DNA of 64,000 nucleotides from Escherichia phage ukendt, in the sequence record NC_052661.1; one strand, 5' to 3'. The first letter of the stretch is position 1. Every line of letters begins with the position of its first letter. Below the pieces are notes generated by a model. The model saw nothing but the letters and a program-made list of their open reading frames with translations. It did no database searches and was not told the origin of the DNA. Below, piece by piece: positions 5,281 to 24,250 of the stretch. A program made the position numbers and the translations under genes.

Positions 5281-5381
5281 AAGATAATCACCGGAAGACC
5301 CCGCTATATATTGATAACTAACGCCTATCAAACAACAAAACATCAAAGGAACAAACTATCAAATCTTTACAATTCTACCTA

Positions 5382-5424
5382 TTGACACCGGATCACGCTT
5401 ACATTATTATTTATCACGTAGGGC
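5382..5424 (+). promoter_or_regulatory. promoter TTGACA with CACGTAGGGC box but no hairpin
   Basis: -35 5382-5387; box 5415-5424. Confidence 0.5.
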
Positions 5425-5456
5425 AAATCATTTTAAACGGTAAACGAGGAATCACC

Positions 5457-5840
5457 ATGAGCAATATCATCAACCTGGCAGCGACTGTAAACGGTAAAGA
5501 CTTTAACGGCGCTGTAGACCGTGATCCTATGTGGTGCTTGTCAGTGTTTAAAGGTGACTTGGTTGAAGTTAGAACAACCGAAGGGTATAGCGATGATTAT
5601 AAATGCGAGATCCATTTACATAACTGGTACACGGGTAAAACTTATGCGCTGAATCATGCGTTTATCGGCAAGGTTGAATATAGAGAAATGATCGACGATG
5701 AAACGGGGCAGGATTTTAGCGAAAACGTTTATATTCGTTCCGAGACATTAGCCGAACGTTTGATCGAGAAAATGAAAGCAAAAAATAAAATTAATTTATC
5801 TCATTGGATTGATATAACAAACGATCCAGCTTATCAGTAA
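5457..5840 (+). CDS. hypothetical protein (127 aa)
   Basis: In-frame ATG after RBS aacgaggaatcacc; track ORF from 5382 would span the promoter. Confidence 0.55.
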   Translation: MSNIINLAATVNGKDFNGAVDRDPMWCLSVFKGDLVEVRTTEGYSDDYKCEIHLHNWYTGKTYALNHAFIGKVEYREMIDDETGQDFSENVYIRSETLAERLIEKMKAKNKINLSHWIDITNDPAYQ

Positions 5841-5856
5841 ATAACATTTCATACCA

Positions 5857-5882
5857 GGGCGCACAAAGCGCCCTTTCTTTTT
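5857..5882 (+). terminator. rho-independent terminator, same sequence as 1232-1257
   Basis: GGGCGC-ACAAA-GCGCCC plus TTTCTTTTT. Confidence 0.7.
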
Positions 5883-5889
5883 GCCCGAA

Positions 5890-7370
5890 CAATGTTGATA
5901 GCTTTCGCCTATGAAAAACCGACACAGAACAAAACTGAATAAATCACGGTATCAAGCTAATCGACCATTAAACGAATAACCATACATCCCAGGGCAACAG
6001 GCTGTTAGAGAGCTATTTAGAGCGGTTAAAATCGATCAACAACCAACAACAAACCATCAAAAACACCCTTTTACCTCCTTTCTAGTGCAATGATAACCAT
6101 TATCATCTACCCATGATTATCTATGCAATATAAGCGCATAATTATAATGTTGATAATAGTTCGCAACAACTAACCAACAAACAACATAAAACAATAAGCA
6201 AACTAATCATAATCAAAGGAATAATAGCAAGATGATTGATAACGACAAACAATCAAACCATGATGAATACTAAGCAAAACAACGATAACACGACAAAACA
6301 ACCAACTAACGAACAATAACAAACGAAACCATTAAAATAACAACTATTAGCAAAATAGTGCCTAAATGAAATCATTACAAAACGAATCATTCACAGGATC
6401 ATCATTAGCACGCTATGCCGGACACATAGCGAGCTAATAATAAGCCAACTACACCCCAACAATCATAACCATCGGTGACGGTTATTTCTTGTTACTGCGT
6501 AGCTTGCAATAATTGCAAGCGTAATGACGCTTACACTTATTGCGCTGGCTTATTATTAGCATTATATGTAATTACCAAGATCATAACATTAGCGCAATAA
6601 CAATAATCATTGTGGTAATTACAAGATGAAATCATTAGCAAGATGAATAATTGCACGTAGCAACATGAGCGAATAGCGACAGGTTGCATAGTGTGCACAT
6701 AGTGTATAAACATACAAGAAAATAAAGGCTAATCTTTTGGGGGCGAATACTATCGCGTAGCGATATGTTGAGCACCTTCTCTTAAACGTAAATAAAATCA
6801 GAAAATTCTTGATTTATTTTAGTTTTTATGTTAATAAACGTTTAAATAATAATCATTCTCATATAAATAATAGTCTGCTTGTCATGAGCGGGATTAGTTG
6901 ACAATGTTCCGTCATATGATGAAGTTGCCAAACCATTGATAAATAAGTGTTTGTGTGATTTATAATCAAGTGGCCCACCTTGTCGCTATGTTGGCATGAG
7001 CCTTGCATAAGTCATTGAATACGAATGATAATTATTCTCATTCGCATGATATTTGGGAATTGTCGCTGCGTGGACCTGACGGCCCGAAAATTCGCGTTAA
7101 GCACTTCTTACGTATGCGCCATGATTTTTGCCATATGATATTGATTCTATTAGATATTCTTGCCATGAAACAAGGTGTGTCGAAATAATCTCTCCCCGTA
7201 GATATTTTGGGTTACTTTTTATACAAGAGTGGGGTGTCAAAAATAATCGGTATATATGGGATAATTGATAGGAATCCCCTATGGTAATTCGATTGTAATT
7301 CCTTAAGATTGATCGTATGATGTTGGTGATTGATGATTGCCATGAAAGATGGCTAACGATGAGAGGAGAT
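5890..7370. other. 1.5-kb ORF-free region: A+C-skewed tract (about 5930-6430), 19-bp palindrome GCTTGCAATAATTGCAAGC (6503-6521), ATCATTAGCA-like direct repeats
   Basis: no ORF with RBS; strong strand compositional asymmetry; palindromes and repeats read directly. Confidence 0.5.
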
Positions 7371-7374
7371 TGTC

Positions 7375-7749
7375 ATGCAAGAGAGTAAAAATATTCCGTT
7401 GAGTAGTGCAACATTGCTTCGCTTCTATAAAGCATGGATTGCCAACTATCCTGCAATGAATCGCACAACGAGTGGCTTATGTGGTTGTCTGGTAGATTAT
7501 GTAGATGATTTTGTTGGTGAGACAACTAGAGAAGAAGATAGAAGATGGCGTGATCATTTGTTGGACCGTTTGAAATATGAAATGAGGAAACAATTTACAT
7601 GTGCAGGGCTGGACTACAATCTTCCGTTCAATGCAGATTGCATGGATTACCTTTCAGAGTGTATAAACTTGGCGTGTCATACCAACACGTTACGTCTTCA
7701 ATGGGTGAAAGATCGGATTGAAGATGCAAATAATGCTTGCATTGAATAA
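7375..7749 (+). CDS. hypothetical protein, member 1 of WVKDR paralog family
   Basis: ORF track; RBS gagaggag; shares FY..W...GLC....PF....WVKDRI pattern with 11626, 14846, 18145, 19450. Confidence 0.6.
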   Translation: MQESKNIPLSSATLLRFYKAWIANYPAMNRTTSGLCGCLVDYVDDFVGETTREEDRRWRDHLLDRLKYEMRKQFTCAGLDYNLPFNADCMDYLSECINLACHTNTLRLQWVKDRIEDANNACIE

Positions 7750-7798
7750 AGATGTTTGTATAATGGATGACATAACAGATAGCCAATGAGGAGATGAA

Positions 7799-8008
7799 AT
7801 GAAGAATTTGAAAACTGTCACAATGTTCTTGACTGATCCTACACGTGTGCAAGCACTGGCTAAAGCCAGCCGTGTAGCTGTAGAATTCCAAAACTTTAAG
7901 CCGTCCGTTGTGACAGGCAGTGAAACGTGTGTTATCGATTTCATTAACGAATACTTCCGAGGGAATCCGGTTGGTCGTTACTTTATTAAGGGTCTGAAGG
8001 ATGCATAA
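7799..8008 (+). CDS. hypothetical protein (69 aa)
   Basis: ORF track; RBS gaggagatgaa. Confidence 0.5.
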   Translation: MKNLKTVTMFLTDPTRVQALAKASRVAVEFQNFKPSVVTGSETCVIDFINEYFRGNPVGRYFIKGLKDA

Positions 8009-8231
8009 CATGAAACGCATGAAAATTCGTATTGAGAATGGTGGTGGTTATAAAGGATTGGCACATGCAAAATTTCCACTTGTGTTGGAAGCTACAGTGG
8101 AATACAGTGGGCTTGCTCATGTGCGATTCTCGAAGATGATGGAAGTGCAGGAATGGTTTTGGGACGAGATAGATGCACGAGAAGGAGAAGATTATGTTTT
8201 CTTTCCTCACGAATATAACATTGTCTATTAA
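8001..8231 (+). CDS. hypothetical protein (76 aa), DYVFF-motif pair with 12336
   Basis: ORF track; MKIRI...WF.E...EG.DYVFF shared with 12336-12557. Confidence 0.5.
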   Translation: MHNMKRMKIRIENGGGYKGLAHAKFPLVLEATVEYSGLAHVRFSKMMEVQEWFWDEIDAREGEDYVFFPHEYNIVY

Positions 8232-8234
8232 AGG

Positions 8235-8483
8235 TTGTGTGCAATGATCACACCACAACAGAATGAAGCAGCAATGGATCTTCTTGATAGTTTGTATTTC
8301 GATAATTGGTACTCTGAATGTGAATGGATGAATGTGCAAACTCTGAAAGAGAAGACAGAAGCGTTGATTACCGTAGATCAATTTCTTGCAGAGACGGAAA
8401 GAATGAATTATGATATGGCATCTCGCGCACGACGCGTTTCCATTTTCAATAAAATGTTAGCATTATGGGGAGGTAGAAAATGA
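8235..8483 (+). CDS. hypothetical protein (82 aa)
   Basis: ORF track. Confidence 0.5.
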   Translation: MCAMITPQQNEAAMDLLDSLYFDNWYSECEWMNVQTLKEKTEALITVDQFLAETERMNYDMASRARRVSIFNKMLALWGGRK

Positions 8484-8941
8484 GACAATTCACTATACTG
8501 GCAGCTTATGTGCAATGTGTTCACGACTATGTTAGTGCTCATACAGGTGTGCTGGAAGTTACCAGTAAAATTGAAGGTAATATGGGTACTGTCTGTGTGC
8601 AACATACTTTATCCAATGTGCCGTTTAAAGTGTTCACTGTTGTAGCTGCCGATTACAATCGTGTAGATGTGCGTTTCTTGGATCATAATTTTCGTAACGC
8701 ACTAGATAATATCGAAGATTATCTTCCCGTGAAACCTTTGTCATTTCCACCGAGTCGTGCAAATAATGTAGTGACAAACCTTAATGAAAGGAATGTGGCT
8801 ATGCACAAAAAAGTTCGTCAATTGAAAATGCTGATGGAAATGCAAGAAGAGATTGAAAAAGAACTGAAAGAAGATTTCGGTATGCTTCCAAAAGACGCTT
8901 TGAAATGGTATGATGAACTAGGAGGAGAAAGTTATGAATAA
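8480..8941 (+). CDS. hypothetical protein (153 aa)
   Basis: ORF track; RBS ggaggtagaaa; ATGA overlap. Confidence 0.55.
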   Translation: MRQFTILAAYVQCVHDYVSAHTGVLEVTSKIEGNMGTVCVQHTLSNVPFKVFTVVAADYNRVDVRFLDHNFRNALDNIEDYLPVKPLSFPPSRANNVVTNLNERNVAMHKKVRQLKMLMEMQEEIEKELKEDFGMLPKDALKWYDELGGESYE

Positions 8942-9128
8942 AGGAACTACTGTATATTTAGTGACTAAGAACACCCCAGGTTGGAATCAGTGCACAACAA
9001 CTCCATATAAAGTCTGTGCAACACTGGAATTAGCACAACGTGCAGAAGCAGAAGTTGATGCTATGCAATACAGCTACGGTGAAATCATTCCTTTTACTCT
9101 TGAACAAGAAGGAGCACATCATGTTTAA
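8934..9128 (+). CDS. hypothetical protein (64 aa)
   Basis: ORF track; RBS ggaggagaaagtt. Confidence 0.5.
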   Translation: MNKGTTVYLVTKNTPGWNQCTTTPYKVCATLELAQRAEAEVDAMQYSYGEIIPFTLEQEGAHHV

Positions 9129-9906
9129 AGTAGGTTTTGTTTATAATTTCAAATCGGAAGATACCAAAAAGAATTTTGGTAAAGCCAGTATTCGTAACGC
9201 TTTCTTTGTAGGTTGCATTCAAGATAGTAAGTTTAAAGTTTTAGATGTTGATTTTCTAGGTTCTGTGTCAAAGGTGAAGGTATTAGACACAAATAAGATC
9301 ATCGAAGGTAGTTCTGGGCTTTTTCCTGAAGGCTATAAGCTTGTAAGTTGTATAGATTATAGTCGTTTTGAAGAACATCCTCCTGAAGATTATGAGGATT
9401 CTCCTACAGGAGGTTGTGTCTTTGTAGAAGGTGGTGTCTATAAGTTTGCAAGTGAACAAGATCGTAAGCTTTTCGCCAATTATATTGACGGCGGACAAAC
9501 GACAAACAATGTAAACCGAAAAATTTCCGATCTTATTGGCGATGATCCTTTCGTGATCACAAAGATGGTTGGACAAGATGTAACAGCAATCCGTAGGCTT
9601 GTATGTAATACAAATCATGTAGCAGGTGAAGGTTGGTTCAAGGAAGCTTGTGCGCTGCTAATCAAAAGTGATAACCCTTATTTTAAAAATATTAAAGATG
9701 TTGTTGAGCCTAAACAAGAGGAACCCGCAGCGAATTTTAAACACTATGCTATTGTTAAAGGTATGAATGTCCAACTGGTGTCACATTCTTACGAAGAGAT
9801 CGCCACAGAAGCAAAAAAGATGAAGGAAGAATACCCAATTTCTACTGTTGAGATCTATGAGCGTATTGGTGTTGTTAGTATTGAGCCTACTGCGGTAATA
9901 AAATAA
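9121..9906 (+). CDS. hypothetical protein (261 aa), N-terminus MFKV paralogous to 9916
   Basis: In-frame ATG after RBS aaggagcacatc; track start 9040 overlaps upstream gene. Confidence 0.55.
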   Translation: MFKVGFVYNFKSEDTKKNFGKASIRNAFFVGCIQDSKFKVLDVDFLGSVSKVKVLDTNKIIEGSSGLFPEGYKLVSCIDYSRFEEHPPEDYEDSPTGGCVFVEGGVYKFASEQDRKLFANYIDGGQTTNNVNRKISDLIGDDPFVITKMVGQDVTAIRRLVCNTNHVAGEGWFKEACALLIKSDNPYFKNIKDVVEPKQEEPAANFKHYAIVKGMNVQLVSHSYEEIATEAKKMKEEYPISTVEIYERIGVVSIEPTAVIK

Positions 9907-9915
9907 GGAGCTATT

Positions 9916-10353
9916 ATGTTCAAAGTTAATGCTGTTTACTGTTTCAAAAGCAAAGCTGCATGTGAAGCTTTCTCTATGATCTCTGATGAAAATTTCAAAA
10001 TGGCAGCTTTGATTGAAGGGTCTTGTTTCCGCGTCGAAGATGTTAGTGAATCAGGGTCTGTTTGCTCATTGACTTTATTGGACAGCGGAGATATTATTGA
10101 AGCTGGACAGTATCCGTTCAGAAGTTGGGAGATATTGTTAGCTCGCGGAGAGCGTAACTTTTTTATGTGCGTGTCTGCGGGGGAAGTTGTGAAAGAAACT
10201 AAGGATGTTTCTGTTTACAATTCTGAATTTATAAGTTATAGTGAGTATCAACATCTGGAAGGCATTGTTGGTCACTTGTTATCTCTGATTGACATTGAAT
10301 GTGACTTGCCTGAATCATTGAAAGAAGAGTTGAAAGCATTAGATCTGCTGTAA
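9916..10353 (+). CDS. hypothetical protein (145 aa), MFKV-type N-terminus
   Basis: ORF track; RBS aataaggagctatt. Confidence 0.55.
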   Translation: MFKVNAVYCFKSKAACEAFSMISDENFKMAALIEGSCFRVEDVSESGSVCSLTLLDSGDIIEAGQYPFRSWEILLARGERNFFMCVSAGEVVKETKDVSVYNSEFISYSEYQHLEGIVGHLLSLIDIECDLPESLKEELKALDLL

Positions 10354-10380
10354 TGTTCCGCACAACGAAAGGAGAATAAA

Positions 10381-10680
10381 ATGAATCTGACCGAACAGTT
10401 ACGCCGTATTGCAAAAGAAGCTTCCTTCAACTTCCCTGTTGAAGAAGTGATCGAGACATGTTTTGCTGAAGCACGAGCGGGAAACTCTTCAAGAAATTTC
10501 ACGCCATCTGATTTTGGTCTGGATAATTCCCCTACCCACCCAGGGGAGATCTACAATCAGGTGAAGTGGATGGATGAAGCAGTAGCAATTCTTCGTGAGC
10601 GTGGGCTTATTGTTTATAAAGAAATGGATCTGAACGGGGCATACGAGTGGATCACTATTGATTGGTCGGAGGTGAAATAA
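10381..10680 (+). CDS. hypothetical protein (99 aa)
   Basis: ORF track; RBS aaaggagaataaa. Confidence 0.55.
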   Translation: MNLTEQLRRIAKEASFNFPVEEVIETCFAEARAGNSSRNFTPSDFGLDNSPTHPGEIYNQVKWMDEAVAILRERGLIVYKEMDLNGAYEWITIDWSEVK

Positions 10681-10889
10681 TGGTTACTATCACATTGACA
10701 GTTACACAAGAGCAAGCAGAAGAATTACGTGATGCAGTGGCATACATGGGACGCTCTTATTATATGCCTTATAAATCACAAGATGTTTTTGCTACAGCCA
10801 TTGAGAAAGCTTTAAACAAATATCGAGAAACTCATGCCGTTCCTAAAGTATCAGCAGAAGAGTTTGGCACTTGGCACGAAGTTAACTAA
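10680..10889 (+). CDS. hypothetical protein (69 aa)
   Basis: In-frame ATG after RBS ggaggtgaaata; 1-nt overlap with upstream stop. Confidence 0.5.
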   Translation: MVTITLTVTQEQAEELRDAVAYMGRSYYMPYKSQDVFATAIEKALNKYRETHAVPKVSAEEFGTWHEVN

Positions 10890-10899
10890 GGAGGTATCG

Positions 10900-11133
10900 A
10901 TGAAAGGTAACAAGATGAAAGTTAATCAGGTACCGAGTGCATACACTTTGTGGCTTGCGCGAGCGTTACACCAGACGATCAAAAATCCTAAGAAGCCAAT
11001 GAAGAGTGGGAAGAAGTTTATGTCTAAGGGCAAAACAACCTTTGGCTTCACTCGTATGTCTGTTAAGATGGAAAGGCTGGGGTACAAGCCAAACTACGCT
11101 CGTTACCCTTCCGAATACAACTGGTTTGACTAA
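10900..11133 (+). CDS. hypothetical basic protein (77 aa)
   Basis: In-frame ATG after RBS taaggaggtatcg. Confidence 0.5.
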   Translation: MKGNKMKVNQVPSAYTLWLARALHQTIKNPKKPMKSGKKFMSKGKTTFGFTRMSVKMERLGYKPNYARYPSEYNWFD

Positions 11134-11148
11134 AGAGGAGAACAAAAC

Positions 11149-11433
11149 ATGAAAACATCTATTCGCGTGAAACATGATCCGAACAGCAGTTACCCATACG
11201 TGTATGTTGAACGTCATGAAGGGGACTATTACACCATAAAACGTAAAGTCCCAACTGACACAGGGTTTAACTTCGATGTTATCGCACTGGATGATCAAGG
11301 TGTTGATAATCTGGTGAATGCATTACTCGCATTGAAGGAAGTACGACATGAAAATCAGACTAAAGGTAAAGTGGCTTTCGATTCTTGTGATCGTTTAGCC
11401 GAAGAGATTGCCGAATGGCGTGATACTCACTAA
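11149..11433 (+). CDS. hypothetical protein (94 aa)
   Basis: ORF track; RBS aaagaggagaacaaaac. Confidence 0.55.
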   Translation: MKTSIRVKHDPNSSYPYVYVERHEGDYYTIKRKVPTDTGFNFDVIALDDQGVDNLVNALLALKEVRHENQTKGKVAFDSCDRLAEEIAEWRDTH

Positions 11434-11448
11434 AACAGGAGAAAGATT

Positions 11449-11625
11449 ATGGCTACTTTTCAACAACTCAAAGATGTTTCACGTTTAGTAAGAAAAATCC
11501 GAGAAGCAGACGCTGCTGTGCGGAATGCATTAACGCCAGCAGAGCGTGAAGATCTTGAAGAGGAGGTGAAAACAGCCGAGAATGCTTTTGCTGCGTATCT
11601 TTCAACACTGTACACAGGAGGTTAA
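11449..11625 (+). CDS. hypothetical protein (58 aa)
   Basis: ATG after RBS aacaggagaaagatt; fills gap between track ORFs. Confidence 0.45.
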   Translation: MATFQQLKDVSRLVRKIREADAAVRNALTPAEREDLEEEVKTAENAFAAYLSTLYTGG

Positions 11626-11940
11626 ATGTCAGAAGAACTTAAAGAATTTTATCAGGCATATCATAACTGGCTGTTAGCTGGTGCTCCAGATAATAATCCT
11701 TTCTGGCACGATAAAGGGTTATGTAGTTGCCTCTACCTTTGGACTGGTGGTTACGATGATCTAAATTATGAAATGCAAATGCAATTTCGAGAAGCAGGGT
11801 TGTCTGAAGAATACCCGTTTGATGACGGGGACAGGTTTAAATATGATTTTGCACAAAGAAACGGGCTGCTACATTTGAATGCTGCCCGTATAAAATGGGT
11901 AAAAGATCATGCTACACAGGAGGATGTGCAATGCCTATAG
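11626..11940 (+). CDS. hypothetical protein, WVKDR paralog family member 2
   Basis: ORF track; conserved GLCSCL and KWVKDH motifs. Confidence 0.6.
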   Translation: MSEELKEFYQAYHNWLLAGAPDNNPFWHDKGLCSCLYLWTGGYDDLNYEMQMQFREAGLSEEYPFDDGDRFKYDFAQRNGLLHLNAARIKWVKDHATQEDVQCL

Positions 11941-12131
11941 TGTTTGTTTTCTTGGCGATTGTTATTGTAGTTCTTTTCGCTGCATGGCTTTGGGATTTTG
12001 ACCCAGGAGCCGCGCAGCAAAGAGCTACAGACTTGAAAGAACAATGTATTGTGCTCAAACATGAACGAAATGCGGAGAAATTTCTTGACCTGGAGTGTGA
12101 TCGCCTTGTAAGATACAAGCAAGATAAATAA
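11931..12131 (+). CDS. hypothetical membrane protein (66 aa)
   Basis: In-frame ATG; hydrophobic MPIVFVFLAIVIVVLFAAWLW. Confidence 0.45.
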   Translation: MPIVFVFLAIVIVVLFAAWLWDFDPGAAQQRATDLKEQCIVLKHERNAEKFLDLECDRLVRYKQDK

Positions 12132-12145
12132 CCTTGAGGTGCAAA

Positions 12146-12334
12146 ATGGTAATTGAGATTAAACTTGAATATGCTGGGGCTGTTGCCTTGATCGCACAAA
12201 TGCTTGGAGCAAAGATTGAAGAAGTGTATATCAATGCCTGGAGCGTAGAGATTGATGTTCCTATGGATAACATTGCTAATCGCTTGCTGGTAGCAGAGTG
12301 TGAACGCACCAACATAATCTACAAAGGAGCATAA
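12146..12334 (+). CDS. hypothetical protein (62 aa)
   Basis: In-frame ATG; track start 12134 is TTG. Confidence 0.45.
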   Translation: MVIEIKLEYAGAVALIAQMLGAKIEEVYINAWSVEIDVPMDNIANRLLVAECERTNIIYKGA

Positions 12335-12335
12335 T

Positions 12336-12557
12336 ATGAAAATTAGAGTTTGTGATGTATTGGGTTATGTTGGTTTTGAGAATGTTCAGATTCCTTTTGT
12401 TGTTGAAGCACATCTTGTTAGCGATGATATGACAACATTCTTTGTTACGATAGAAGAAATGTCTAAAGTTGAGGGATGGGAGTGGTTTGAAGAAGATGTT
12501 TGGGAAGGTTGTGATTACGTATTTTTCTCTGACGAAGTGAATGTTCTTTCGGAGTAG
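12336..12557 (+). CDS. hypothetical protein (73 aa), DYVFF-motif pair with 8001
   Basis: ORF track; RBS caaaggagcataat. Confidence 0.5.
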   Translation: MKIRVCDVLGYVGFENVQIPFVVEAHLVSDDMTTFFVTIEEMSKVEGWEWFEEDVWEGCDYVFFSDEVNVLSE

Positions 12558-12559
12558 GT

Positions 12560-12766
12560 ATGTCTTGTTTTACAAAAGCAGTGTCCATATGTAAGAAACA
12601 GTATGAAAGTGATTACGGAATATTTAATCTTCCAGTGGATCATACGGAGTATTGTTCATGTGGTGGCAGGATGAAGAAAACAGTGATTTATGCGGATAAT
12701 GGAGATGAACTTGTTCCGGTTATGGTTTGCAAAGCTTGTCATTCTGTTAAAACATTAAAAGCGTAA
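12560..12766 (+). CDS. hypothetical Cys-rich (zinc-ribbon-like) protein (68 aa)
   Basis: ORF track; CSCGG...CKACH pattern. Confidence 0.5.
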   Translation: MSCFTKAVSICKKQYESDYGIFNLPVDHTEYCSCGGRMKKTVIYADNGDELVPVMVCKACHSVKTLKA

Positions 12767-12861
12767 GGAGTCGGGACACCCGACGATTGGAGCTAAAAAT
12801 TTTGCGTACAACCCTTTCCGCCCAACAGGGGCGCGTCGGGTAAATAAAGAGGAGAGTTTAT

Positions 12862-13260
12862 ATGAAAAAGATCATCGTAGGTTTCTTGTTACTCATTGCA
12901 TCACTTGGAACAGCAAGTGCGTCTCAAGTTTATGAGTGTGTGTCAGATGTGGTTGTTAAAAATCTGAAAGGTGAAGTGATTTCTGGTCCTAAGAAAATGG
13001 CTTCTGTTATCATTAATAAAGATAACTCCTTTATCCTTAAAAATTCGGGTGGTGCTTTGATGAGTGGCATTCTGCAATACACAGGAGAAAAAAGTAAAGA
13101 TGGTAGTGCTATGTACGGTTCACAACAGTTTATTGGCACTACTGAAGTTGTGATGATGCGCACAGAGTATCGAGACACTTTGGCTTGGTTTGCATTTCTA
13201 AAAAATGATAAAACAATAACGAATGTTCTTACTCTAGAAGCTGATTGCACGCAACGATAA
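12862..13260 (+). CDS. hypothetical secreted protein or lipoprotein (132 aa)
   Basis: ORF track; signal-like N-terminus MKKIIVGFLLLIASLGTASA. Confidence 0.55.
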   Translation: MKKIIVGFLLLIASLGTASASQVYECVSDVVVKNLKGEVISGPKKMASVIINKDNSFILKNSGGALMSGILQYTGEKSKDGSAMYGSQQFIGTTEVVMMRTEYRDTLAWFAFLKNDKTITNVLTLEADCTQR

Positions 13261-13269
13261 GGGGTATTT

Positions 13270-13716
13270 ATGACTAAAATGAGACATTATGCTGTAAACT
13301 GTAACGATGTTTGGCGTTTGTGTCCTGATGATCCGACAGAAGGCACATTTGTAAGATATGAGGATTATAAAGAGTTATCAGATGCTGTGATCGCATTGTT
13401 AACTGATATCCGTTCACGTTATCCAGGACAAGATTTCACTTGCCCTCACATCAAACTTCTTGCTTGTCTGGTAGAAGGTGAGAAAGAAGTGGAAGATGGC
13501 TTCAAGCGTGTAGAGTATCAAGGTGAAACTTTAGAGGTTCCTGAATTTGTTAATTATATTGCAACAGATTCGAGTGGCGAGCGTTATGGCTACAGCCATA
13601 AGCCAGAGATTCCTGATTGGATTCCCGCTTGGAGATATTCCGTTAGTACCGGAGACTATATCTTCCTTGGTGTAGGTAGTAGTAAGGATTGGCGTTTCTC
13701 TTTGACAGAGGTTTAA
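13270..13716 (+). CDS. hypothetical protein (148 aa)
   Basis: ORF track. Confidence 0.55.
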   Translation: MTKMRHYAVNCNDVWRLCPDDPTEGTFVRYEDYKELSDAVIALLTDIRSRYPGQDFTCPHIKLLACLVEGEKEVEDGFKRVEYQGETLEVPEFVNYIATDSSGERYGYSHKPEIPDWIPAWRYSVSTGDYIFLGVGSSKDWRFSLTEV

Positions 13717-13720
13717 TAAT

Positions 13721-13984
13721 ATGAAAGAGACATTGCCAGCAGCATACCGTTTGAATGATGAACGTATTTGGGAGTGGACCGACGTTTCTTGTTTTTACCC
13801 TGAAATAGTTCAATATTGGCGAGCGAAAGGGTGTGTTGTAGTTATCAACCCTTGTGGACCAGTAGATGAAGATTGCTTGTATCTCGATGGAAAGTGGCAC
13901 AGTTATTGTCGCTGGCCTTTTGAGTGGATGTGTAAAGAAGATCTCCCAGAGGGTTGGGAGTATCCAAAAGCAAATAGGAGATAA
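13721..13984 (+). CDS. hypothetical protein (87 aa)
   Basis: ORF track. Confidence 0.5.
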   Translation: MKETLPAAYRLNDERIWEWTDVSCFYPEIVQYWRAKGCVVVINPCGPVDEDCLYLDGKWHSYCRWPFEWMCKEDLPEGWEYPKANRR

Positions 13985-13985
13985 T

Positions 13986-14348
13986 ATGTCTAAAGATTTT
14001 GTTGAAGTGTTTGTCAAAGACGAAGAAACTGGTTTAGGCACAGGTTTCATTTGTGAAGAAACCTTTAAGCGTGAACAAGAAAAAGCTATTCTTATGCGAA
14101 ACTATGATCACGCATTAGAACAATGGAAAAATGCAGAACAAAAATGCAAAAACCTTTATGCAGAAAATAGAAAACTACAAGATCAAATGGAGTTGTTAGC
14201 TATCAGTTTACGATCTCTCATTTTGGCTGTAGAAGATGGTTTTAAAAATCCAGATGGTTTTCCTGTGAGCGATATTGAACATGATTTGTATCTTGCTCGT
14301 GGTGCTTACTTTTATGTTAAACAGAAGTCTGTAGAAGGAGAGAAGTGA
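13986..14348 (+). CDS. hypothetical protein (120 aa)
   Basis: In-frame ATG after RBS aataggagataat; track start 13866 overlaps upstream gene. Confidence 0.5.
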   Translation: MSKDFVEVFVKDEETGLGTGFICEETFKREQEKAILMRNYDHALEQWKNAEQKCKNLYAENRKLQDQMELLAISLRSLILAVEDGFKNPDGFPVSDIEHDLYLARGAYFYVKQKSVEGEK

Positions 14349-14545
14349 TGGAAGAAAAACTGGAACGTATTATCGAGTTAGCCATGTCTATTGGCTACGA
14401 CGATTGTTTTATCCAAACTATTGGAGAAACACAGAACGATTACGACTCTTGGGTGAAAGAGTTGGAAGAACTCAAAACTTCCTTGATTGCTGACTTTGCT
14501 GAAGCAGAGGATAAAGCAGATCGTTACAACTATCTGTGTCGATAA
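14348..14545 (+). CDS. hypothetical protein (65 aa)
   Basis: TGATG overlap with upstream stop; RBS gaaggagagaag. Confidence 0.5.
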   Translation: MEEKLERIIELAMSIGYDDCFIQTIGETQNDYDSWVKELEELKTSLIADFAEAEDKADRYNYLCR

Positions 14546-14548
14546 ACC

Positions 14549-14585
14549 TTGACATTTATTTTATGTATGGTATACATACATTATC
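14549..14585 (+). promoter_or_regulatory. putative sigma70 promoter (TTGACA)
   Basis: -35 at 14549-14554 in intergenic gap before 14608 gene. Confidence 0.4.
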
Positions 14586-14607
14586 AACGTGAGCAAGGTG
14601 GTGTAAT

Positions 14608-14880
14608 ATGAATAAAGATCGGTTTCTTTCTTTAGTCGCGGAAGCGCCTTTTGATGTTCTTGGGGTGAGATTATGGAAAGACAGAAACTATGGGTTAGAT
14701 GTTCAAACATATTCTCTTTGGTTGGTTGGGGAGCACAGCTTAGATGAAAGCTTGTGCATGGGTAGGGATTCTCGTTCCCTTTGTTTAAAGTTCAGAAGCT
14801 TAGAACGCGCAAACAAAGAGCAAGAAAAACTAACGAGGTGGCTAAATGAAAACAAGCACAGGGTTGATGGAGTTTTATAA
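14608..14880 (+). CDS. hypothetical protein (90 aa)
   Basis: ORF track; RBS aaggtggtgtaat. Confidence 0.5.
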   Translation: MNKDRFLSLVAEAPFDVLGVRLWKDRNYGLDVQTYSLWLVGEHSLDESLCMGRDSRSLCLKFRSLERANKEQEKLTRWLNENKHRVDGVL

Positions 14881-15172
14881 AATTTATCTAGCATGGATTG
14901 ATGTTGGTGCTCCTGATGGTAAACCTTTTCGGCGGGATTGTGGTTTGTGTGCCAACTTGTTCGATTATGTGCACAGAGGTAATTACAACCCCATTATAAC
15001 AACCTTGTCAGATGAAATGCACGCACAGTTTTACCATAAAGGGTTGAATCAAGGACTCCCTTTCAATGAGAACTACGATGCATATGTCTTAGAGTCAGAT
15101 GCAGATGCCTGTCACCTGAACGTGGACAGAATTAATTGGGTAAGAGATCGTATTGCAGAGGAGGATGAATAA
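14846..15172 (+). CDS. hypothetical protein, WVKDR paralog family member 3
   Basis: ORF track; GLCANL and NWVRDRI motifs. Confidence 0.6.
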   Translation: MKTSTGLMEFYKIYLAWIDVGAPDGKPFRRDCGLCANLFDYVHRGNYNPIITTLSDEMHAQFYHKGLNQGLPFNENYDAYVLESDADACHLNVDRINWVRDRIAEEDE

Positions 15173-15399
15173 TGTCGGATTATAACTGGTATGAACTTGA
15201 AGCTGTTTGTCAGTTTTATGATTCAATAGTTCTACGTGATCCAATCTGTCAAGAATTGAGTCGCCGTGCAAGTGCATTGGCAATCCGTGTTAAAATAAAT
15301 GGTTGGAACCCAGACTTGGAAAAAGAGTTGGAATTTCTCTTAGAAACAACACGTGTCTTCCACAAAGTGTTCCCTGAATGGTTCGAGATGGAAGAATGA
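15172..15399 (+). CDS. hypothetical protein (75 aa)
   Basis: ORF track; TAATG overlap. Confidence 0.5.
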   Translation: MSDYNWYELEAVCQFYDSIVLRDPICQELSRRASALAIRVKINGWNPDLEKELEFLLETTRVFHKVFPEWFEMEE

Positions 15400-15617
15400 T
15401 CATGTGGATTGTACGTCTTAAATATGATGGCCCTGATCCTTGGGTGCATAACGTTTGCGGTTGTGATTCCGAAGAAGCAGCACATAAAGCAGGAAGAGCA
15501 GTAAGTGCCTTCTATAATGACAAACCTTTTTGTTTAGAAATGGCAGGTGTGGTTTGTATGAGCATGTTCGAATACTACTCTTATGAAATCAAAGAACACC
15601 AAGGGGAATGGAAATAA
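15396..15617 (+). CDS. hypothetical Cys-containing protein (73 aa)
   Basis: In-frame ATG; ATGA overlap with upstream gene. Confidence 0.45.
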   Translation: MIMWIVRLKYDGPDPWVHNVCGCDSEEAAHKAGRAVSAFYNDKPFCLEMAGVVCMSMFEYYSYEIKEHQGEWK

Positions 15618-15621
15618 ATCG

Positions 15622-15650
15622 TTGACAGAAGGATCTGTCTTTGTCATAAT
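15622..15650 (+). promoter_or_regulatory. putative promoter TTGACA-N17-CATAAT
   Basis: hexamers at 15622-15627 and 15645-15650. Confidence 0.45.
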
Positions 15651-15679
15651 CATCTCATCGAAACAAAGAGGAGAAAATC

Positions 15680-16093
15680 ATGAAAAAGTTTATTTGCACC
15701 CGTTCCACTAACAGTGATATCCTTGTAGGTAAGGTTATCAAAGGAGAACTCTTCCATGCAAATGGTAAGAAATATATTCTGCTGAAAGATTCTTTCAACG
15801 GGGAATATCCGCGCTGCACTTTCTTCAATTACAACACTCCATTTGCTTTAGAAGGAGATGCTTGGGAATGGGCTGAACTCAATCCTTGTTATGAGGAAGA
15901 AGAATCTATGTTCTTAGGTTTAAACGTTTACCGTGTAGATTACACCATGTGCGGAGCGGAACATTCTGTTCGCGTAGAAGCCGAATCCAAACTACAAGCA
16001 CCTTTCAAGGCAGGATTGACTTTGGGTCATTGTTTGGCAAACATTGAAGATGTTGTGATCCAAAGAGTTGTTTTAGAGAAAGAGGCTATTTGA
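15680..16093 (+). CDS. hypothetical protein (137 aa)
   Basis: ORF track; RBS caaagaggagaaaatc. Confidence 0.55.
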   Translation: MKKFICTRSTNSDILVGKVIKGELFHANGKKYILLKDSFNGEYPRCTFFNYNTPFALEGDAWEWAELNPCYEEEESMFLGLNVYRVDYTMCGAEHSVRVEAESKLQAPFKAGLTLGHCLANIEDVVIQRVVLEKEAI

Positions 16094-16147
16094 CAGAAGA
16101 CGGTACAATATTTAAAATATAAAGATTAACCACAAAAGGAGAGAAAC

Positions 16148-16447
16148 ATGCAAGTTGAAGACCTGATCAAGATTCTGAATAAAGCCAAAGAGAAGGGTGC
16201 TATCAAAGACTGGAAACGTGAAACAAGTGAAGATTTATCTCATTGTTGTCGAGAATTTTACATTGAAGGTATTGCTAACGATCATTATACTATTGAATGG
16301 TATATTAACTTAATGACTCTTAAACACGGTTCATTTGAGGTTTGGTTTGATGACATTGATGTAAATGGTTTTCATCCTGGCTATAAAATCGCTATGCAGT
16401 TATCTTATCGTAGAGAAGTTGTAGCACATTTGGGTTTACATAACTAA
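16148..16447 (+). CDS. hypothetical protein (99 aa)
   Basis: ORF track; RBS caaaaggagagaaac. Confidence 0.55.
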   Translation: MQVEDLIKILNKAKEKGAIKDWKRETSEDLSHCCREFYIEGIANDHYTIEWYINLMTLKHGSFEVWFDDIDVNGFHPGYKIAMQLSYRREVVAHLGLHN

Positions 16448-16457
16448 GGAGAAAAGA

Positions 16458-16781
16458 ATGCAAGCAGTTGTTAACGAAGCTATTATGAACTTATCCTTCT
16501 TGTTAGCTGGTTTAGGAGGTGTTCTCATAGGTTTGGCTCTTATCTGGTGTATTCGTCGATTAATCGGGTACCGACAAAAAGGTGTTTCATGTTTTGTATC
16601 TTACAATTTTACAACTGCTTACAGCAATGAGGTTGGATCTGGTAATGCTCAAGCATTTTTACCAACATATCCTCCTACGGTGGAAGATATTCGAAACTTG
16701 GAAGTAGAACTTATGGGACTAAGTGATAACTATACATCTCTCGTTATTCAAAATATTTTTCGACTAAAACAGGAGGCGTGA
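16458..16781 (+). CDS. hypothetical membrane protein (107 aa)
   Basis: ORF track; hydrophobic N-terminal segment. Confidence 0.5.
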   Translation: MQAVVNEAIMNLSFLLAGLGGVLIGLALIWCIRRLIGYRQKGVSCFVSYNFTTAYSNEVGSGNAQAFLPTYPPTVEDIRNLEVELMGLSDNYTSLVIQNIFRLKQEA

Positions 16782-16994
16782 ATGAAGGCACATTACCCTC
16801 ATCCCTTTGATCCTAAAAACAAAGCCGTAATTCTTCGTCAGTGGCAACGGGTTTGTCGTACTAAATGTCCAATTAATAGCCAACACAATGTGGACAAGGA
16901 TTATCTTGGGACATTTGTTGAATACACTTACATAGACAAAAACAAGCGTAAACAACATGTCGAGGAATACTGCTTAAAAGTAGAATGGCTGTAA
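16782..16994 (+). CDS. hypothetical protein (70 aa)
   Basis: ORF track; RBS aaacaggaggcgtga. Confidence 0.5.
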   Translation: MKAHYPHPFDPKNKAVILRQWQRVCRTKCPINSQHNVDKDYLGTFVEYTYIDKNKRKQHVEEYCLKVEWL

Positions 16995-17006
16995 ATAATA
17001 AATACC

Positions 17007-17035
17007 TTGACAAGTGTTTATTCGTTTTGTAAAGT
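17007..17035 (+). promoter_or_regulatory. putative promoter TTGACA-N17-TAAAGT
   Basis: hexamers 17007-17012 and 17030-17035 upstream of recombinase gene. Confidence 0.45.
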
Positions 17036-17064
17036 GAGAATACAGCAATGGTTTAGGAGTGGTT

Positions 17065-17736
17065 ATGAAAAAGTTTGTTGTTTACAGTCGTCTTTCTAAA
17101 CAGAAAAAAGGTGAGGCACAATATGGTATGGAGAGCCAAGAGAACGATATCCGTTACTTCTTAGACTCTGTGCCTGACGCTGAAGTTATTGGTCAATTTT
17201 CTGAATACTATTCGGGTAAGGGCGATTGGAAGCAACGTAAGGAACTGGTTAAAGCGGTTGAAATGTGTAAAGCTACCGGAGCAACTTTATTGGTAGCTAA
17301 AGTTGACCGCTTGGGTCGTAACAACGCCTCCGTAGCAACTCTCCTAGAAATGATCGATGTTAAGATAGCCATCATGCCAGACGCAGATAAAATGGTTATA
17401 CAGCTTCTGTCTGTTTTGGCTGAACAAGAAGTTAGAGGTATTGCTGATCGTATTAAAAAGGGTCTTGCTGTAGCAAAAAGCAAAGGTGTTTTATTAGGCA
17501 GTGCTAATCCTAAAACTGCCGCTGCACGTAGAAAAGGAAAAATGGAATACAACTCTGTTAAAGCAGACGCTTTTGCAGAGACATTCCGTGAACGCTTGGA
17601 GATCCTTAGAGATTTAAATACACCTTACAAAACTATTGCTGAAAAATTTAATAGTAAGAAAATAGCAACAGCACGTGGTGGTAAATGGGATGCTAAGACT
17701 GTTTCTCGTTTGTGTGCCAGACTGAACATTAAATAG
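17065..17736 (+). CDS. serine recombinase (resolvase/invertase family)
   Basis: YSRLSKQ catalytic-Ser context, VAKVDRLGRN and ADRIKKG motifs, C-terminal HTH; track start 17059 is GTG. Confidence 0.75.
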   Translation: MKKFVVYSRLSKQKKGEAQYGMESQENDIRYFLDSVPDAEVIGQFSEYYSGKGDWKQRKELVKAVEMCKATGATLLVAKVDRLGRNNASVATLLEMIDVKIAIMPDADKMVIQLLSVLAEQEVRGIADRIKKGLAVAKSKGVLLGSANPKTAAARRKGKMEYNSVKADAFAETFRERLEILRDLNTPYKTIAEKFNSKKIATARGGKWDAKTVSRLCARLNIK

Positions 17737-17744
17737 GAGAGGAT

Positions 17745-18167
17745 ATGAAACAAGAAAATGAATCTGTAGATCACTTAATCATGCTGTCAGCCCTTTTTGC
17801 AGGATGGGACGTATTTTTTGAAAATTTGTTCAATTCTGCTACAGATGGTTCCGATTTTATGCGCCAGTTTAAACGACGAACTGTTGAGGACTATGCTTTC
17901 TATTCAGGTCGGATTGAAAAAGGTTACGAAGATACAAATACAACACTCACCATTAAAGTTTTAGATGTGATGTTTAGTGTTATAGATGCTATCGACGAAA
18001 GTCTTCCGATCCTAGACAATTGTAATACGAAAGCCTATGTTTACAAAATAGCTCGTGCTTATGTGTCTGCAAACAGTTGCCTTCTTTCCACCCAGATTGC
18101 CGTGAACAATCTTGCCAACTTGTTCGATGAAGGAGAAACTTTTTATGACAATCGATTTGAAGTGTAA
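17745..18167 (+). CDS. hypothetical protein (140 aa)
   Basis: ORF track; RBS taggagaggat. Confidence 0.5.
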   Translation: MKQENESVDHLIMLSALFAGWDVFFENLFNSATDGSDFMRQFKRRTVEDYAFYSGRIEKGYEDTNTTLTIKVLDVMFSVIDAIDESLPILDNCNTKAYVYKIARAYVSANSCLLSTQIAVNNLANLFDEGETFYDNRFEV

Positions 18168-18510
18168 GAGGATTCTTTTAGATTTCTATAATAATTGGTT
18201 AGAACACCTCCGTCTCTTTCCAAGAGAAAGTGGTTACGCTGATGTTGGCTTATGCCGAGGTCTACGTATGTATATAAGTGATGAATTTCGGGCCGAGCAT
18301 TCTTTAGCATATTCTGTTTATGGTATGCAATTAGCCAGTTTTGAAAACGCTGGCTTAGATACAACTTTCCCATTTAACACAGCAAAATCTTTTGAGCAAG
18401 AGTGTAAGGAAAAACGTTGCATGTTTAATGAAAAACGTGTACAGTGGGTTAAGGATCGAGTTAAACAACTGGAACAAGAGTTGGATTTCTTCTATGATGA
18501 GGCAGAATAA
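18145..18510 (+). CDS. hypothetical protein, WVKDR paralog family member 4
   Basis: In-frame ATG after RBS gaaggagaaac; GLCRGL and QWVKDRV motifs. Confidence 0.6.
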   Translation: MTIDLKCKRILLDFYNNWLEHLRLFPRESGYADVGLCRGLRMYISDEFRAEHSLAYSVYGMQLASFENAGLDTTFPFNTAKSFEQECKEKRCMFNEKRVQWVKDRVKQLEQELDFFYDEAE

Positions 18511-18782
18511 TGGATAGACAAACCTTAAAAACAATGGCAGATGCCACTAATTCCCCGTACTTTGAAAAAGTAAGTAAATTGGTAGCTCAAGCCGCAGAGG
18601 AAGGATATTATAACATAAACATCCACAACCCAAGTCTTATACTAGAAATGCCAAGTGATAAGAAGATACAAGAGAGTATCTGTGAAGGTATTGTTAGTTA
18701 CTGGCGCGAGCGTGGGTGTGGTGCAAACATGGCTTTAGACAGTGCAAACATTGTAAGATATATAAATATTTCTTGGGGGTGA
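18510..18782 (+). CDS. hypothetical protein (90 aa)
   Basis: ORF track. Confidence 0.5.
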   Translation: MDRQTLKTMADATNSPYFEKVSKLVAQAAEEGYYNINIHNPSLILEMPSDKKIQESICEGIVSYWRERGCGANMALDSANIVRYINISWG

Positions 18783-18786
18783 TTTT

Positions 18787-19398
18787 ATGATTCAATGCAC
18801 TCATATCCAAATTACTTGGAGAGATGAACTTTACCATTTGGGACAATTTACTGTAGGGGAAACATACCCTATCATTAAACATAATCCTAACATCGCAAAC
18901 TTTGACAGGATGGTTCTTGTTGAGGACGATCTAGGTCAAACTTATTCTTTAGATCTAAAATATCCGTTTTCTTACGGCTACGATTGGATCGTTACTTTTG
19001 AAGACGTGGAGGAAAATAAAACAATGAACGAAAAAAATTCTTGGTATTATCGTTGTGAACTGCCACCAGTAGGTGAAAAGGTTATCTTTGTCCCTGATTT
19101 GGAAAGATATTCTTGGGACAGTTCTTATTCTGTTCCTAAAGAAGGCACCGAAGTTGAAGTTATTGCACATCGCACAACTTCGCATGGTAACGATGTAGCA
19201 GTTGTTTTCTGGGATGATGAAGGCGCTGCTTGTGCAGGTGGCTTTGTTGCAGGTAATTTTGAACCCCTGCCAGATCCTTTGAAGGAGGCAATTTTAGGCG
19301 TAGCTTCTTTTGGACTCTCTTACACATCTGCACAAGAGATCGTAGAAGGTATTTTAAACGGTACCGTTCCAAACGAAATTTTTAAACAGATTAAATAA
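18787..19398 (+). CDS. hypothetical protein (203 aa)
   Basis: ORF track. Confidence 0.55.
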   Translation: MIQCTHIQITWRDELYHLGQFTVGETYPIIKHNPNIANFDRMVLVEDDLGQTYSLDLKYPFSYGYDWIVTFEDVEENKTMNEKNSWYYRCELPPVGEKVIFVPDLERYSWDSSYSVPKEGTEVEVIAHRTTSHGNDVAVVFWDDEGAACAGGFVAGNFEPLPDPLKEAILGVASFGLSYTSAQEIVEGILNGTVPNEIFKQIK

Positions 19399-19449
19399 TA
19401 GTTGCACCCCGTTCTGCGGGGTGTTATTGTATATGTAAAGGAGGCGCTA

Positions 19450-19788
19450 ATGTATTACACTGAAGACTACATATTGTATAACTTTTTTAAAGGTTGGTTG
19501 AAATGGGCGGAACAAGCTCCTGTCGGAGATTGTGTTTTTCCTTGGGATTCTCGTCAAGGCTTGTGTCGTTGTTTGGAAGATTGGCTTATAACCACAAACT
19601 ACAATTCAGAAACTAAGAAATCTACATCAAACAGATTAAAAATGTTATTTGAAGAAGATGGTTTAGATCCAATTTATCCTTTCGGTGCTGAAAGCTTCCA
19701 CAATAGTCTTTTTCTTGGCACTCAACATTATGACAAAGATCGCGTAGATTGGGTAAAAGAAAAGGTAGCACAGTATGAATGGGGCTAA
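19450..19788 (+). CDS. hypothetical protein, WVKDR paralog family member 5
   Basis: In-frame ATG after RBS aaaggaggcgcta; GLCRCL and DWVKEKV motifs. Confidence 0.6.
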   Translation: MYYTEDYILYNFFKGWLKWAEQAPVGDCVFPWDSRQGLCRCLEDWLITTNYNSETKKSTSNRLKMLFEEDGLDPIYPFGAESFHNSLFLGTQHYDKDRVDWVKEKVAQYEWG

Positions 19789-21105: not shown

Positions 21106-21321
21106 ATGAGTTCCAATTTTCTATACAAAGCAAAAGATTCACGAGATGGAGAGAACCATTGGTGGTTGATCACAGAAGATGGTGTTATCATCCTACCGTG
21201 GGACGGAGAGACGAAAGTTCAAATACTAGAGAAAGTAAAAGGCGTTAGTTTTAATGTTAGTCATGACATAACAACTTTCAAAGCTTTTGCTATGAATCCT
21301 AGTCTTATTGCTGAATGGTAA
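21106..21321 (+). CDS. hypothetical protein (71 aa), C-terminal LIAEW
   Basis: ORF track; RBS gaacaggaggaaga. Confidence 0.5.
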   Translation: MSSNFLYKAKDSRDGENHWWLITEDGVIILPWDGETKVQILEKVKGVSFNVSHDITTFKAFAMNPSLIAEW

Positions 21322-21334
21322 TCCAGGAGAAAAT

Positions 21335-21553
21335 ATGACTAAAATGTATGCAGCCGTTGATAAGCTGGATGGGTCTGATTCTGTTTTTATTTTGAATAAA
21401 ATGGGTGTCTTAGTTTATGCCCGAACTTCTCAAAACATAGAGCACCAAGTGGAAGCAGCACAAATTTTAGAGCAAATAACCCCTCCATACCTATACTCAA
21501 ATGTTGAGCGTTTTAACGATGCACTTGGTTTGACGTTAATAGCGGAATGGTAA
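21335..21553 (+). CDS. hypothetical protein (72 aa), C-terminal LIAEW like upstream gene
   Basis: In-frame ATG after RBS ccaggagaaaat. Confidence 0.5.
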   Translation: MTKMYAAVDKLDGSDSVFILNKMGVLVYARTSQNIEHQVEAAQILEQITPPYLYSNVERFNDALGLTLIAEW

Positions 21554-24180: not shown

Positions 24181-24224
24181 GCTAGAACCCACCTAAATCG
24201 AACAGAGACGCTCTAAAATAGAAA

Positions 24225-24250
24225 AGGCACCCACTTGGGTGCCTTTGTTT
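24225..24250. terminator. bidirectional terminator AGGCACCC-ACTT-GGGTGCCT between convergent gene blocks
   Basis: perfect 8-bp stem flanked by T-runs on both strands at the plus/minus block junction. Confidence 0.65.

Follow-up and report, generated by a model that had tools for sequence, protein, structure and literature searches.

The closest described counterpart of the genes treated here is gp3 of phage N4 (ABK54374, 104 amino acids (aa)), which is third in gene order within the early region of N4. Its gene stands between those of gp1/gp2 and gp15/gp16, all four being early products (PMC4496689). N4 gp3 is itself uncharacterized; a review of the N4 RNA polymerases gives roles to gp1, gp2, gp15, and gp16 and does not mention gp3 (PMC4496689). 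We compared it with five short open reading frames (ORFs) of Escherichia phage ukendt, located on the plus strand of a 64,000-nucleotide (nt) stretch of sequence record NC_052661.1; the whole stretch is referred to below as the window. An earlier note had singled out these ORFs as a paralog family with a WVKDR motif. N4 gp3 was 32% identical to paralog 3 of the window, scored 60.9 bits (E 6e-20) against a hidden Markov model (HMM) of the family, and had the same length and motif set (GLC, LPFN, CHLN..RI.WIK), but it is present in N4 as a single copy, in contrast to five in the window. All five window proteins also matched PHROG 2510 (related: phrog_6418, 27059, and 2176), which carries no function. 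The profile of this PHROG has 219 positions, half of which are covered by the window proteins, and it was therefore probably built partly on two-domain members. The only members of the family found with experimental data are gp85–gp87 of phage PTXU04. They resemble the window copies in being multi-copy and in residing in a small-gene cluster near one genome end; however, they are directly adjacent, whereas the window copies are dispersed, and they are shorter (95–96 aa), with a reduced helix 2–3 region.

The five ORFs are real homologous genes of one domain, N4 gp3-like/PHROG 2510. They comprise paralog 1 (7375..7749, 124 aa; phrog_2510 at E 2e-25 and 114 bits with the family HMM), paralog 2 (11626..11940, 104 aa; E 4e-29), paralog 3 (14846..15172, 108 aa; E 8e-32), paralog 4 (18145..18510, 121 aa; E 2e-26), and paralog 5 (19450..19788, 112 aa; E 1e-26), all on the plus strand, as the earlier note had placed them; the matches to phrog_2510 thus range from E 2e-25 to 8e-32. 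All ten pairs were significant by BLASTP (E 5e-18 to 2e-3) with 24–39% identity over nearly the full length; paralog 2 matched paralog 3 at E 5e-18, and paralog 5 matched paralog 4 at E 3e-8. HMMs built either from the five proteins or from 130 distant relatives recovered exactly these five in a six-frame search of the 64-kb window, the next match having an E value of 0.77. The five-protein alignment contained 16 invariant columns, which cover every motif listed in the earlier note: F-[YF] followed by W-[LI], G-L-C-x-x-L, P-F, and R-[ILV]-x-W-V-[KR]-[DE] were present in five of five. The ATG starts agree with the GenBank annotation of related phages, and a Shine-Dalgarno (SD) motif was located 5–9 nt upstream of each ORF. 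The similarity obtained with the alignment and HMM is far beyond chance, and the concern that the shared residues might be chance matches of low complexity did not apply, with pairwise E values of 5e-18 to 2e-3. That the motifs match by chance, or that the ORFs are not real genes, is contradicted by the phrog_2510, BLASTP, and HMM results, by the SD motifs, by the ratio of non-synonymous to synonymous variation (pN/pS), and by a family of 1,465 representatives, and we regard its probability as negligible.

The copies differ in detail. Paralog 1 is the first gene past a roughly 2-kb gene-poor stretch; it is preceded by the SD sequence GAGAGGAG, carries a charged insertion of 20 residues between helices 2 and 3, and had a pN/pS of 0.14 (compared with phage vB_Ec-G1). 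Metagenomic orthologues of paralog 1 (alignment A2) have an invariant N-terminus MQESKNVPLSS... and an invariant C-terminus ...WVKDRIEDANNACIE, and between them identity falls to ~50%, with indels; this pattern looks like cassette exchange via recombination between conserved ends. Paralog 2 had a pN/pS of 0.02–0.04. Paralog 3 is the most canonical copy and was chosen for modelling. The motif set FY..W, GLC, EM..QF, GL, PF(N), Y..E, (C)H.N..R..WV is present in paralogs 1–3; paralogs 4 and 5 keep FY/FF, W, GLC, GL, PF, and R..WV and have lost several polar positions. In the alignment, paralog 4, the start of which matches the annotation in relatives, is degenerate at the family-conserved polar positions E57, Q61, and H90. 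Its C-terminus (18478-18507) is an acid-aromatic tail, ELDFFYDEAE, kept in orthologues (P0022: EEIDFFYNEEE), which presumably recalls the acidic C-terminal tails of SSB-type proteins. Paralog 5 is the copy that diverges most; E57, Q61, N74, E83, and N92 are lost in it, and C35, R95, and WV are retained. It is preceded by the SD sequence AAGGAGG and, just upstream, by a terminator-like GC hairpin (19404..19424, +), for which the record of phage Schickermooser has a terminator annotation at the equivalent site; this hairpin excludes a longer, TTG-initiated reading of the fifth ORF.

Each copy is a small (104–124 aa) acidic protein (pI 4.65–5.28, net charge −4 to −9), predicted to be soluble and to form a five-helix bundle; no hydrophobic or transmembrane segment was present in the five proteins. 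The AlphaFold2 (AF2) model of paralog 3, based on a 36-sequence alignment, had a predicted local distance difference test score (pLDDT) of 93.6 and a predicted template modelling score (pTM) of 0.86, with helices at residues 5–19, 34–43, 50–64, 77–85, and 93–107. Foldseek comparison of this model with all PDB chains to April 2026 gave a best E value of 2.1 and a template modelling score (TM) of 0.27, and sequence-profile searches (A2, A3) of solved structures yielded nothing. Against BFVD, by contrast with these searches, 17 proteins were matched at TM 0.79–0.86, all of them uncharacterized phage proteins. The predicted fold is therefore apparently without a solved relative.

Conservation was calculated over 173 aligned domains and is given in the numbering of paralog 3 (p14846). 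Residues L7, F10, Y11, W17, G33, L34, C35, L38, E57, Q61, F62, L67, P72, F73, Y80, N92, R95, W98, and V99 were conserved in 80–100% of the domains, and N37, A65, G66, N74, E83, and H90 in 68–77% (H90 in 69%). C35, located at the N-terminus of helix 2 in the model, was found in 170 of 172 domains and R95 in 173 of 173. About 15 positions, polar ones included, reached a conservation of 90% or more between distant phage families, and the helix 2–3 loop was hypervariable. Since E57 and Q61 share a helical face with the core residues L54, M58, and F62, the conserved polar set is probably a semi-buried cluster.

When 1.84 billion representatives of clusters at 50% identity were searched with a profile, 1,465 matched at E<=1e-3 and 506 at E<=1e-10, mostly of about 100–130 aa; 19 of the best 150 contained 2–3 copies of the domain. 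Among GenBank phages the family was found in 255 records at 629 places, with 1–8 tblastn places per genome across the phage collection, and the gene is annotated as hypothetical in every one of these records. Members occur in Stephanstirmvirinae and rV5/phi92-like myophages; in N4-like podophages of Escherichia, Achromobacter, Erwinia, Delftia, Rhizobium, and Alcaligenes; in T7-like podophages such as Ralstonia RSB1 and Burkholderia JG068; in T1-like siphophages such as Sf12; and in Akira, PTXU04, phiW-14, and the jumbo phages BcepSaruman/BcepSauron. Pseudomonas KPP10/PAK_P1-like phages gave BFVD structural matches, several of them weak. All hosts are Proteobacteria (Alpha-, Beta-, and Gamma-), regardless of the phage's own transcription strategy. 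Among 72,556 plasmid records a single one was matched, the E. coli phage-plasmid NZ_CP148392 (member at 49153-49632, 159 aa), which also carries phd/doc, a DUF2829 protein, and dUTPase; this single match identifies a phage family and not a plasmid leading-region family. The phage-plasmid is the sole clearly non-virulent element found with the family. Overall, the family is phage-only and spans at least six phage lineages of Proteobacteria.

Tandem arrangements are found elsewhere. Three family genes stand in a row on a contig of a distant relative (L005, 14-1289), one of them being a two-domain fusion, the first domain of which is closest to paralog 2 and the second to paralog 1; PTXU04 gp85-87 form another such row (L011, 10186-11030). 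In the rV5-like phage Av-05 and its relatives (one cluster), the family domain is fused downstream of DUF551, the lambda Ea22 C-terminal domain. DUF551 is another early accessory module, the function of which is likewise not known, but it is not homologous to the family domain. Pfam, NCBIfam, and PADLOC scans of the five proteins and a Pfam scan of 130 diverse members returned nothing meaningful, and a word-indexed protein search returned close relatives only. No description of the family was found in the literature on phAPEC8 paralogs, N4 gp3, rV5/phi92, PHROG 2510, or Phapecoctavirus early genes.

The copies were also examined for their origin. The earlier note had described them as spaced every 3–4 kb and had suggested segmental duplication. 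The start-to-start distances are 4251, 3220, 3299, and 1305 nt, so that the second and third lie within this range and the first and last outside it. The suggestion of segmental duplication did not survive comparison of the DNA of the region with itself: no repeat was found beyond a 34-nt stretch at 68–76% identity, which encodes the WVKD motif, and the paralogs are only 24–39% identical. Genes that separate a family member from the repeated gene following it show no relationship (z < 1.6). The only recurring arrangement is a family gene followed by a gene of the DYVFF pair (8001..8231, +, 252 nt downstream of paralog 1; 12336..12557, +, 396 nt downstream of paralog 2; both phrog_15322), that is, 7375 then 8001 and 11626 then 12336. 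The members of this pair are homologous (BLASTP E 1.6e-12, z = 17). This twofold succession within 250–400 nt is what can be said for the idea that a multi-gene cassette was recently duplicated in segments every 3–4 kb, and it may reflect an older two-gene duplication (family gene plus DYVFF gene). The recent cassette duplication itself we consider very improbable, in view of the short motif-coding repeats, the unrelated intervening genes, the irregular spacing, the low identity of the paralogs, and the comparison with contig L005. On this contig, the genes common with the window are ~59% identical to those of the window, and seven family genes with eight domains are present. In a neighbor-joining tree, which was without bootstrap and is suggestive at most, four of the five window paralogs paired with an L005 copy, and paralog 1 fell in a broader clade; moreover, the gene downstream of 11626 and that downstream of 19450 each match the gene downstream of the L005 counterpart. 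The pairing and the conserved downstream neighbors suggest that the duplications probably predate the split of the two lineages, i.e., that they are ancient.

The five copies are under purifying selection. Against two congeneric phages their pooled pN/pS was 0.09 compared to 0.10–0.11 for other genes of the block, and within the genus they are 94–100% identical. Retention under purifying selection argues for non-redundant roles. The family had been called fast-diverging, which does not apply within the genus but holds at longer range: compared with L005, the family had a median identity of 39% vs. 59% for still-common neighbors (Mann–Whitney p = 0.003), and many other neighbors were lost altogether. 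Copy number also varies, Schickermooser having six copies with two adjacent at the block start.

The five ORFs lie inside a block of ~48 short plus-strand genes at 7.4–23.2 kb of the window, the genome being that of a 150-kb E. coli phage. The 13-kb region of the copies is 96–98% identical to that of many Phapecoctavirus phages (Stephanstirmvirinae), including phAPEC8, ESCO5, vB_Ec-G1, and Schickermooser, in the records of which nearly all its genes are hypothetical proteins. Using a cut-off of at least 10 of 12 consensus matches on the plus strand, 5 of 11 sigma70-like promoters fell in intergenic gaps, which make up 8.8% of the DNA (p = 0.0015). This enrichment supports transcription of the block by host RNA polymerase and early expression, as far as they can be judged from the sequence. 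Homologues elsewhere occupy early-type positions, N4 gp3 among the early genes mentioned above and gp5 of the T7-like phage JG068, promoter-proximal, between annotated host promoters and the early terminator. The small plus-strand genes, the promoters in the gaps, and the homologues in N4 and JG068 support the earlier assignment of the ORFs to an early block. No counterparts of other N4 early proteins were found in the window by sequence comparison.

Functional data come from PTXU04, where gp85-87 (PTXU04_00085-87) belong to the family at 70–86 bits with the HMM of the five. In a transcriptome-wide CRISPRi-ART knock-down all three were scored as 'Not Fit' (fitness −1.99, −1.51, and −2.32 vs. 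a threshold of −1.1), and they are absent from the genes listed as toxic on expression in the main text (PMC11879866). The manual HHpred annotation of the authors of that screen was 'unknown' (PMC11879866, supplementary files 8 and 16). The PTXU04 copies are individually dispensable on the laboratory host, as would be expected if their role were accessory or conditional, or if the copies were redundant; this is compatible with anti-defence or host takeover and is not a proof of either. The family had no sequence or fold similarity to solved anti-defence or anti-restriction proteins (Ocr, ArdA, KlcA, Acb2, Tad1/2, Gad, and others), nor to AsiA, Gp2, Ocr, or similar proteins. Several known classes were also rejected by motif order, fold, or charge, including lysozyme-like/SLT and zinc-binding anti-sigma proteins. 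The proteins have neither the R-x(4-6)-H motif on a four-helix fold of HEPN RNases, nor the winged helix-turn-helix fold with a basic surface of MarR/PadR-like DNA-binding proteins, nor the Cys-His-Asn/Asp triad on an alpha+beta fold of papain-like cysteine peptidases and deamidases.

Taken together, we favor, with moderate confidence, the interpretation that the five genes are anciently duplicated copies of an N4 gp3-like domain and encode early cytoplasmic accessory effectors, which are dimers or oligomers and share a site at Cys35/Arg95. Host RNA polymerase would transcribe the genes early, using the sigma70-like promoters in which the block is rich, and the products would act in the cytoplasm as accessory effectors, not as core replication or virion components. 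Formation of homo- or heterodimers or of oligomers is suggested by the tandem fusions, one of which joins paralog-2-like and paralog-1-like domains, and by the tandem gene arrays. The partly buried polar cluster around Cys35/Arg95 could be the common site for binding of a ligand or target or for catalysis, and the variable helix 2–3 loop, along with the degenerate copies 4 and 5, might provide paralog-specific behavior. The classical early effectors T7 Ocr, T4 AsiA, and T4 Arn are small, acidic, soluble, accessory proteins made at the start of infection, and the family can be likened to them in its small, acidic, soluble, and accessory character. An anti-defence or host-takeover role is plausible, and the role that we would guess at first is conditional, either counter-defence or host takeover, and aimed at a component common to Proteobacteria. 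More tentatively, the family could represent a structurally new class of early effectors in at least six virulent phage families, in which a Cys35/Arg95 pocket binds or modifies a small molecule or host factor (e.g., an immune signal or protein), the active form is a dimer of diverged subunits, and the 5–8 copies of phAPEC8-like phages make up a specificity panel. Several observations weigh against the favored interpretation. The polar residues could be conserved for structural reasons only, as a buried network, and not as a functional site. For P0035, a natural fusion of two domains, AF2 modelled domain 1 poorly (pLDDT about 50), which leaves a defined dimer geometry without support. The pN/pS of the copies is equal to that of their neighbors, so there is no arms-race signature within the genus. 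Finally, the dispensability in PTXU04 was measured singly, in another phage and with paralogs present, and redundancy could mask an important function.

Three other functional explanations were weighed. The copies might be a panel of anti-defence binders, in which a common helical scaffold targets a different host immune protein in each paralog and the conserved residues are structural only. The variable copy number (1 to 8 between related phages), the early-type location, the acidic proteins, the individual dispensability on a laboratory strain in PTXU04, the long-range divergence above that of common neighbors, and the hypervariable helix 2–3 loop all suit such a panel. We nevertheless find it doubtful, because no likeness to any solved anti-defence protein was detected, because ~15 positions at least 90% conserved, polar ones included, would be unusual for pure binders of diverse targets, and because pN/pS within the genus is 0.09. 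Anti-restriction genes are common on plasmids, and the near absence of the family from plasmid records (one phage-plasmid in 72,556) also speaks against it. A second explanation is a small enzyme or a small-molecule or metal binder, for instance a sponge or hydrolase of signalling nucleotides or a protein with Cys35 thiol chemistry, with copies 4 and 5 as inactive regulatory subunits. C35 (170/172) at the helix 2 N-terminus, the universal R95 (173/173), the 68–92% conservation of E57, Q61, N74, E83, H90, and N92, and the loss of several polar residues but not of C35 and R95 in paralogs 4 and 5 all point in this direction, and the tandem fusions suit a composite site. On the other hand, no fold or sequence link to any enzyme was found, the domain is just ~100 residues and all-helical, H90 is present in only 69% of domains, and 5–8 diverged copies are not obviously needed for one activity; we consider this explanation rather unlikely. 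Still less likely in our opinion are host-takeover regulators that bind a conserved machine of Proteobacteria (RNA polymerase, nucleoid proteins, degradosome, or replisome). Such a target would agree with confinement of the family to phages of Alpha-, Beta-, and Gammaproteobacteria whatever their transcription strategy and with the early-type location, and the acidic charge is compatible with nucleic-acid mimicry; however, the PTXU04 copies are not needed for growth and are not in the main-text list of toxic genes (PMC11879866), and similarity to AsiA, Gp2, Ocr, or the like is lacking.

Partly repeating neighborhoods, also claimed by the earlier note, were confirmed, since all three further gene pairs are homologous, the last one weakly. 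In addition to the DYVFF pair, these are the adjacent MFKV genes (9121-9906 and 9916-10353, +), which have a common N-terminal domain (BLASTP E 5.5e-9, z = 13; common phrog_622/3710/5347), and the adjacent LIAEW genes (21106-21321 and 21335-21553, +; z = 6, phrog_16110 cross-match at E 5e-4). The MFKV genes are labelled 'goF' in some GenBank records. Their matches to the goF (T4 comC-alpha) profiles were weak (phrog_13003 at E 4e-7, phrog_2980 at E 4e-6), with no stretch passing alone, and much stronger matches were obtained to PHROGs of unknown function; a Pfam scan of the pair gave no match. Among the other genes of the block that were scanned, Pfam matched only a resolvase (serine recombinase), DUF7202, DUF2158, and DUF7438, and the neighborhood thus supplies no functional clue. 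The serine recombinase (resolvase/invertase; PF00239, E 5e-18) is encoded mid-block at 17059-17736 (+), just upstream of paralog 4; in Schickermooser the annotated coding sequence at this site has only 387 nt and carries the remark of a partial PinE domain, and the tblastn match extends over 78% of the window protein. At 8480-8941 (+) lies a gene that is only 55–56% identical to its vB_Ec-G1/Schickermooser counterpart, in contrast to 96–100% for the flanking genes, and the ORF at 8934-9128 (+) is without a counterpart in these phages; 8480-9128 is a local replacement hot spot.

Upstream of the small-gene block, a stretch of roughly 2 kb (~5300-7375) is AT-rich, has no convincing genes, and contains only short imperfect direct and inverted repeats; the numbering of several related phages' GenBank records begins near window position 7000. 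Downstream, a bidirectional terminator-like hairpin (24223..24246; 10 bp stem, 6 GC pairs) separates the plus-strand block from minus-strand genes, and the GC skew switches sign there. The minus-strand block encodes a Sir2-family protein, dTDP-sugar enzymes, ribonucleotide reductase, ThyX, and DNA and RNA ligases. The Sir2-family gene (PF02146, E 1e-20; 24566-25366, −) is the first large minus-strand ORF, ~320 nt past the hairpin; Sir2 domains are better known in bacterial anti-phage systems. RmlD-like and dTDP-glucose/GDP-mannose 4,6-dehydratase-like genes (37571-38413 and 39857-40849, −) represent a partial nucleotide-sugar pathway carried by the phage amid nucleotide-metabolism genes (ribonucleotide reductase, ThyX, ligases). 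In the tRNA cluster at 61.7–63.7 kb, Rfam gave an eleventh tRNA-like match (62449-62533, +; 39 bits), which was not reported by ARAGORN.

An entry for the family, with no assigned function, already exists among the PHROGs, GenBank annotates it as hypothetical, and the present locus adds a well-documented member. As it stands, the family is typical, although unusually widespread, phage dark matter; what sets it apart is how broadly it occurs, how well its motifs are conserved, and a fold that is apparently unmatched. It is among the larger uncharacterized phage-only families, with members both in N4, a model phage, and in coliphages of the therapeutic type. For the discovery of its function it offers a well-defined target, given that the AlphaFold model is confident, that the motifs are very strongly conserved, and that the domain occurs in tandem fusions and in expanded copy number. 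If the family is a true counter-defence or takeover module, this would annotate thousands of 'hypothetical' early genes across the phages of Proteobacteria.

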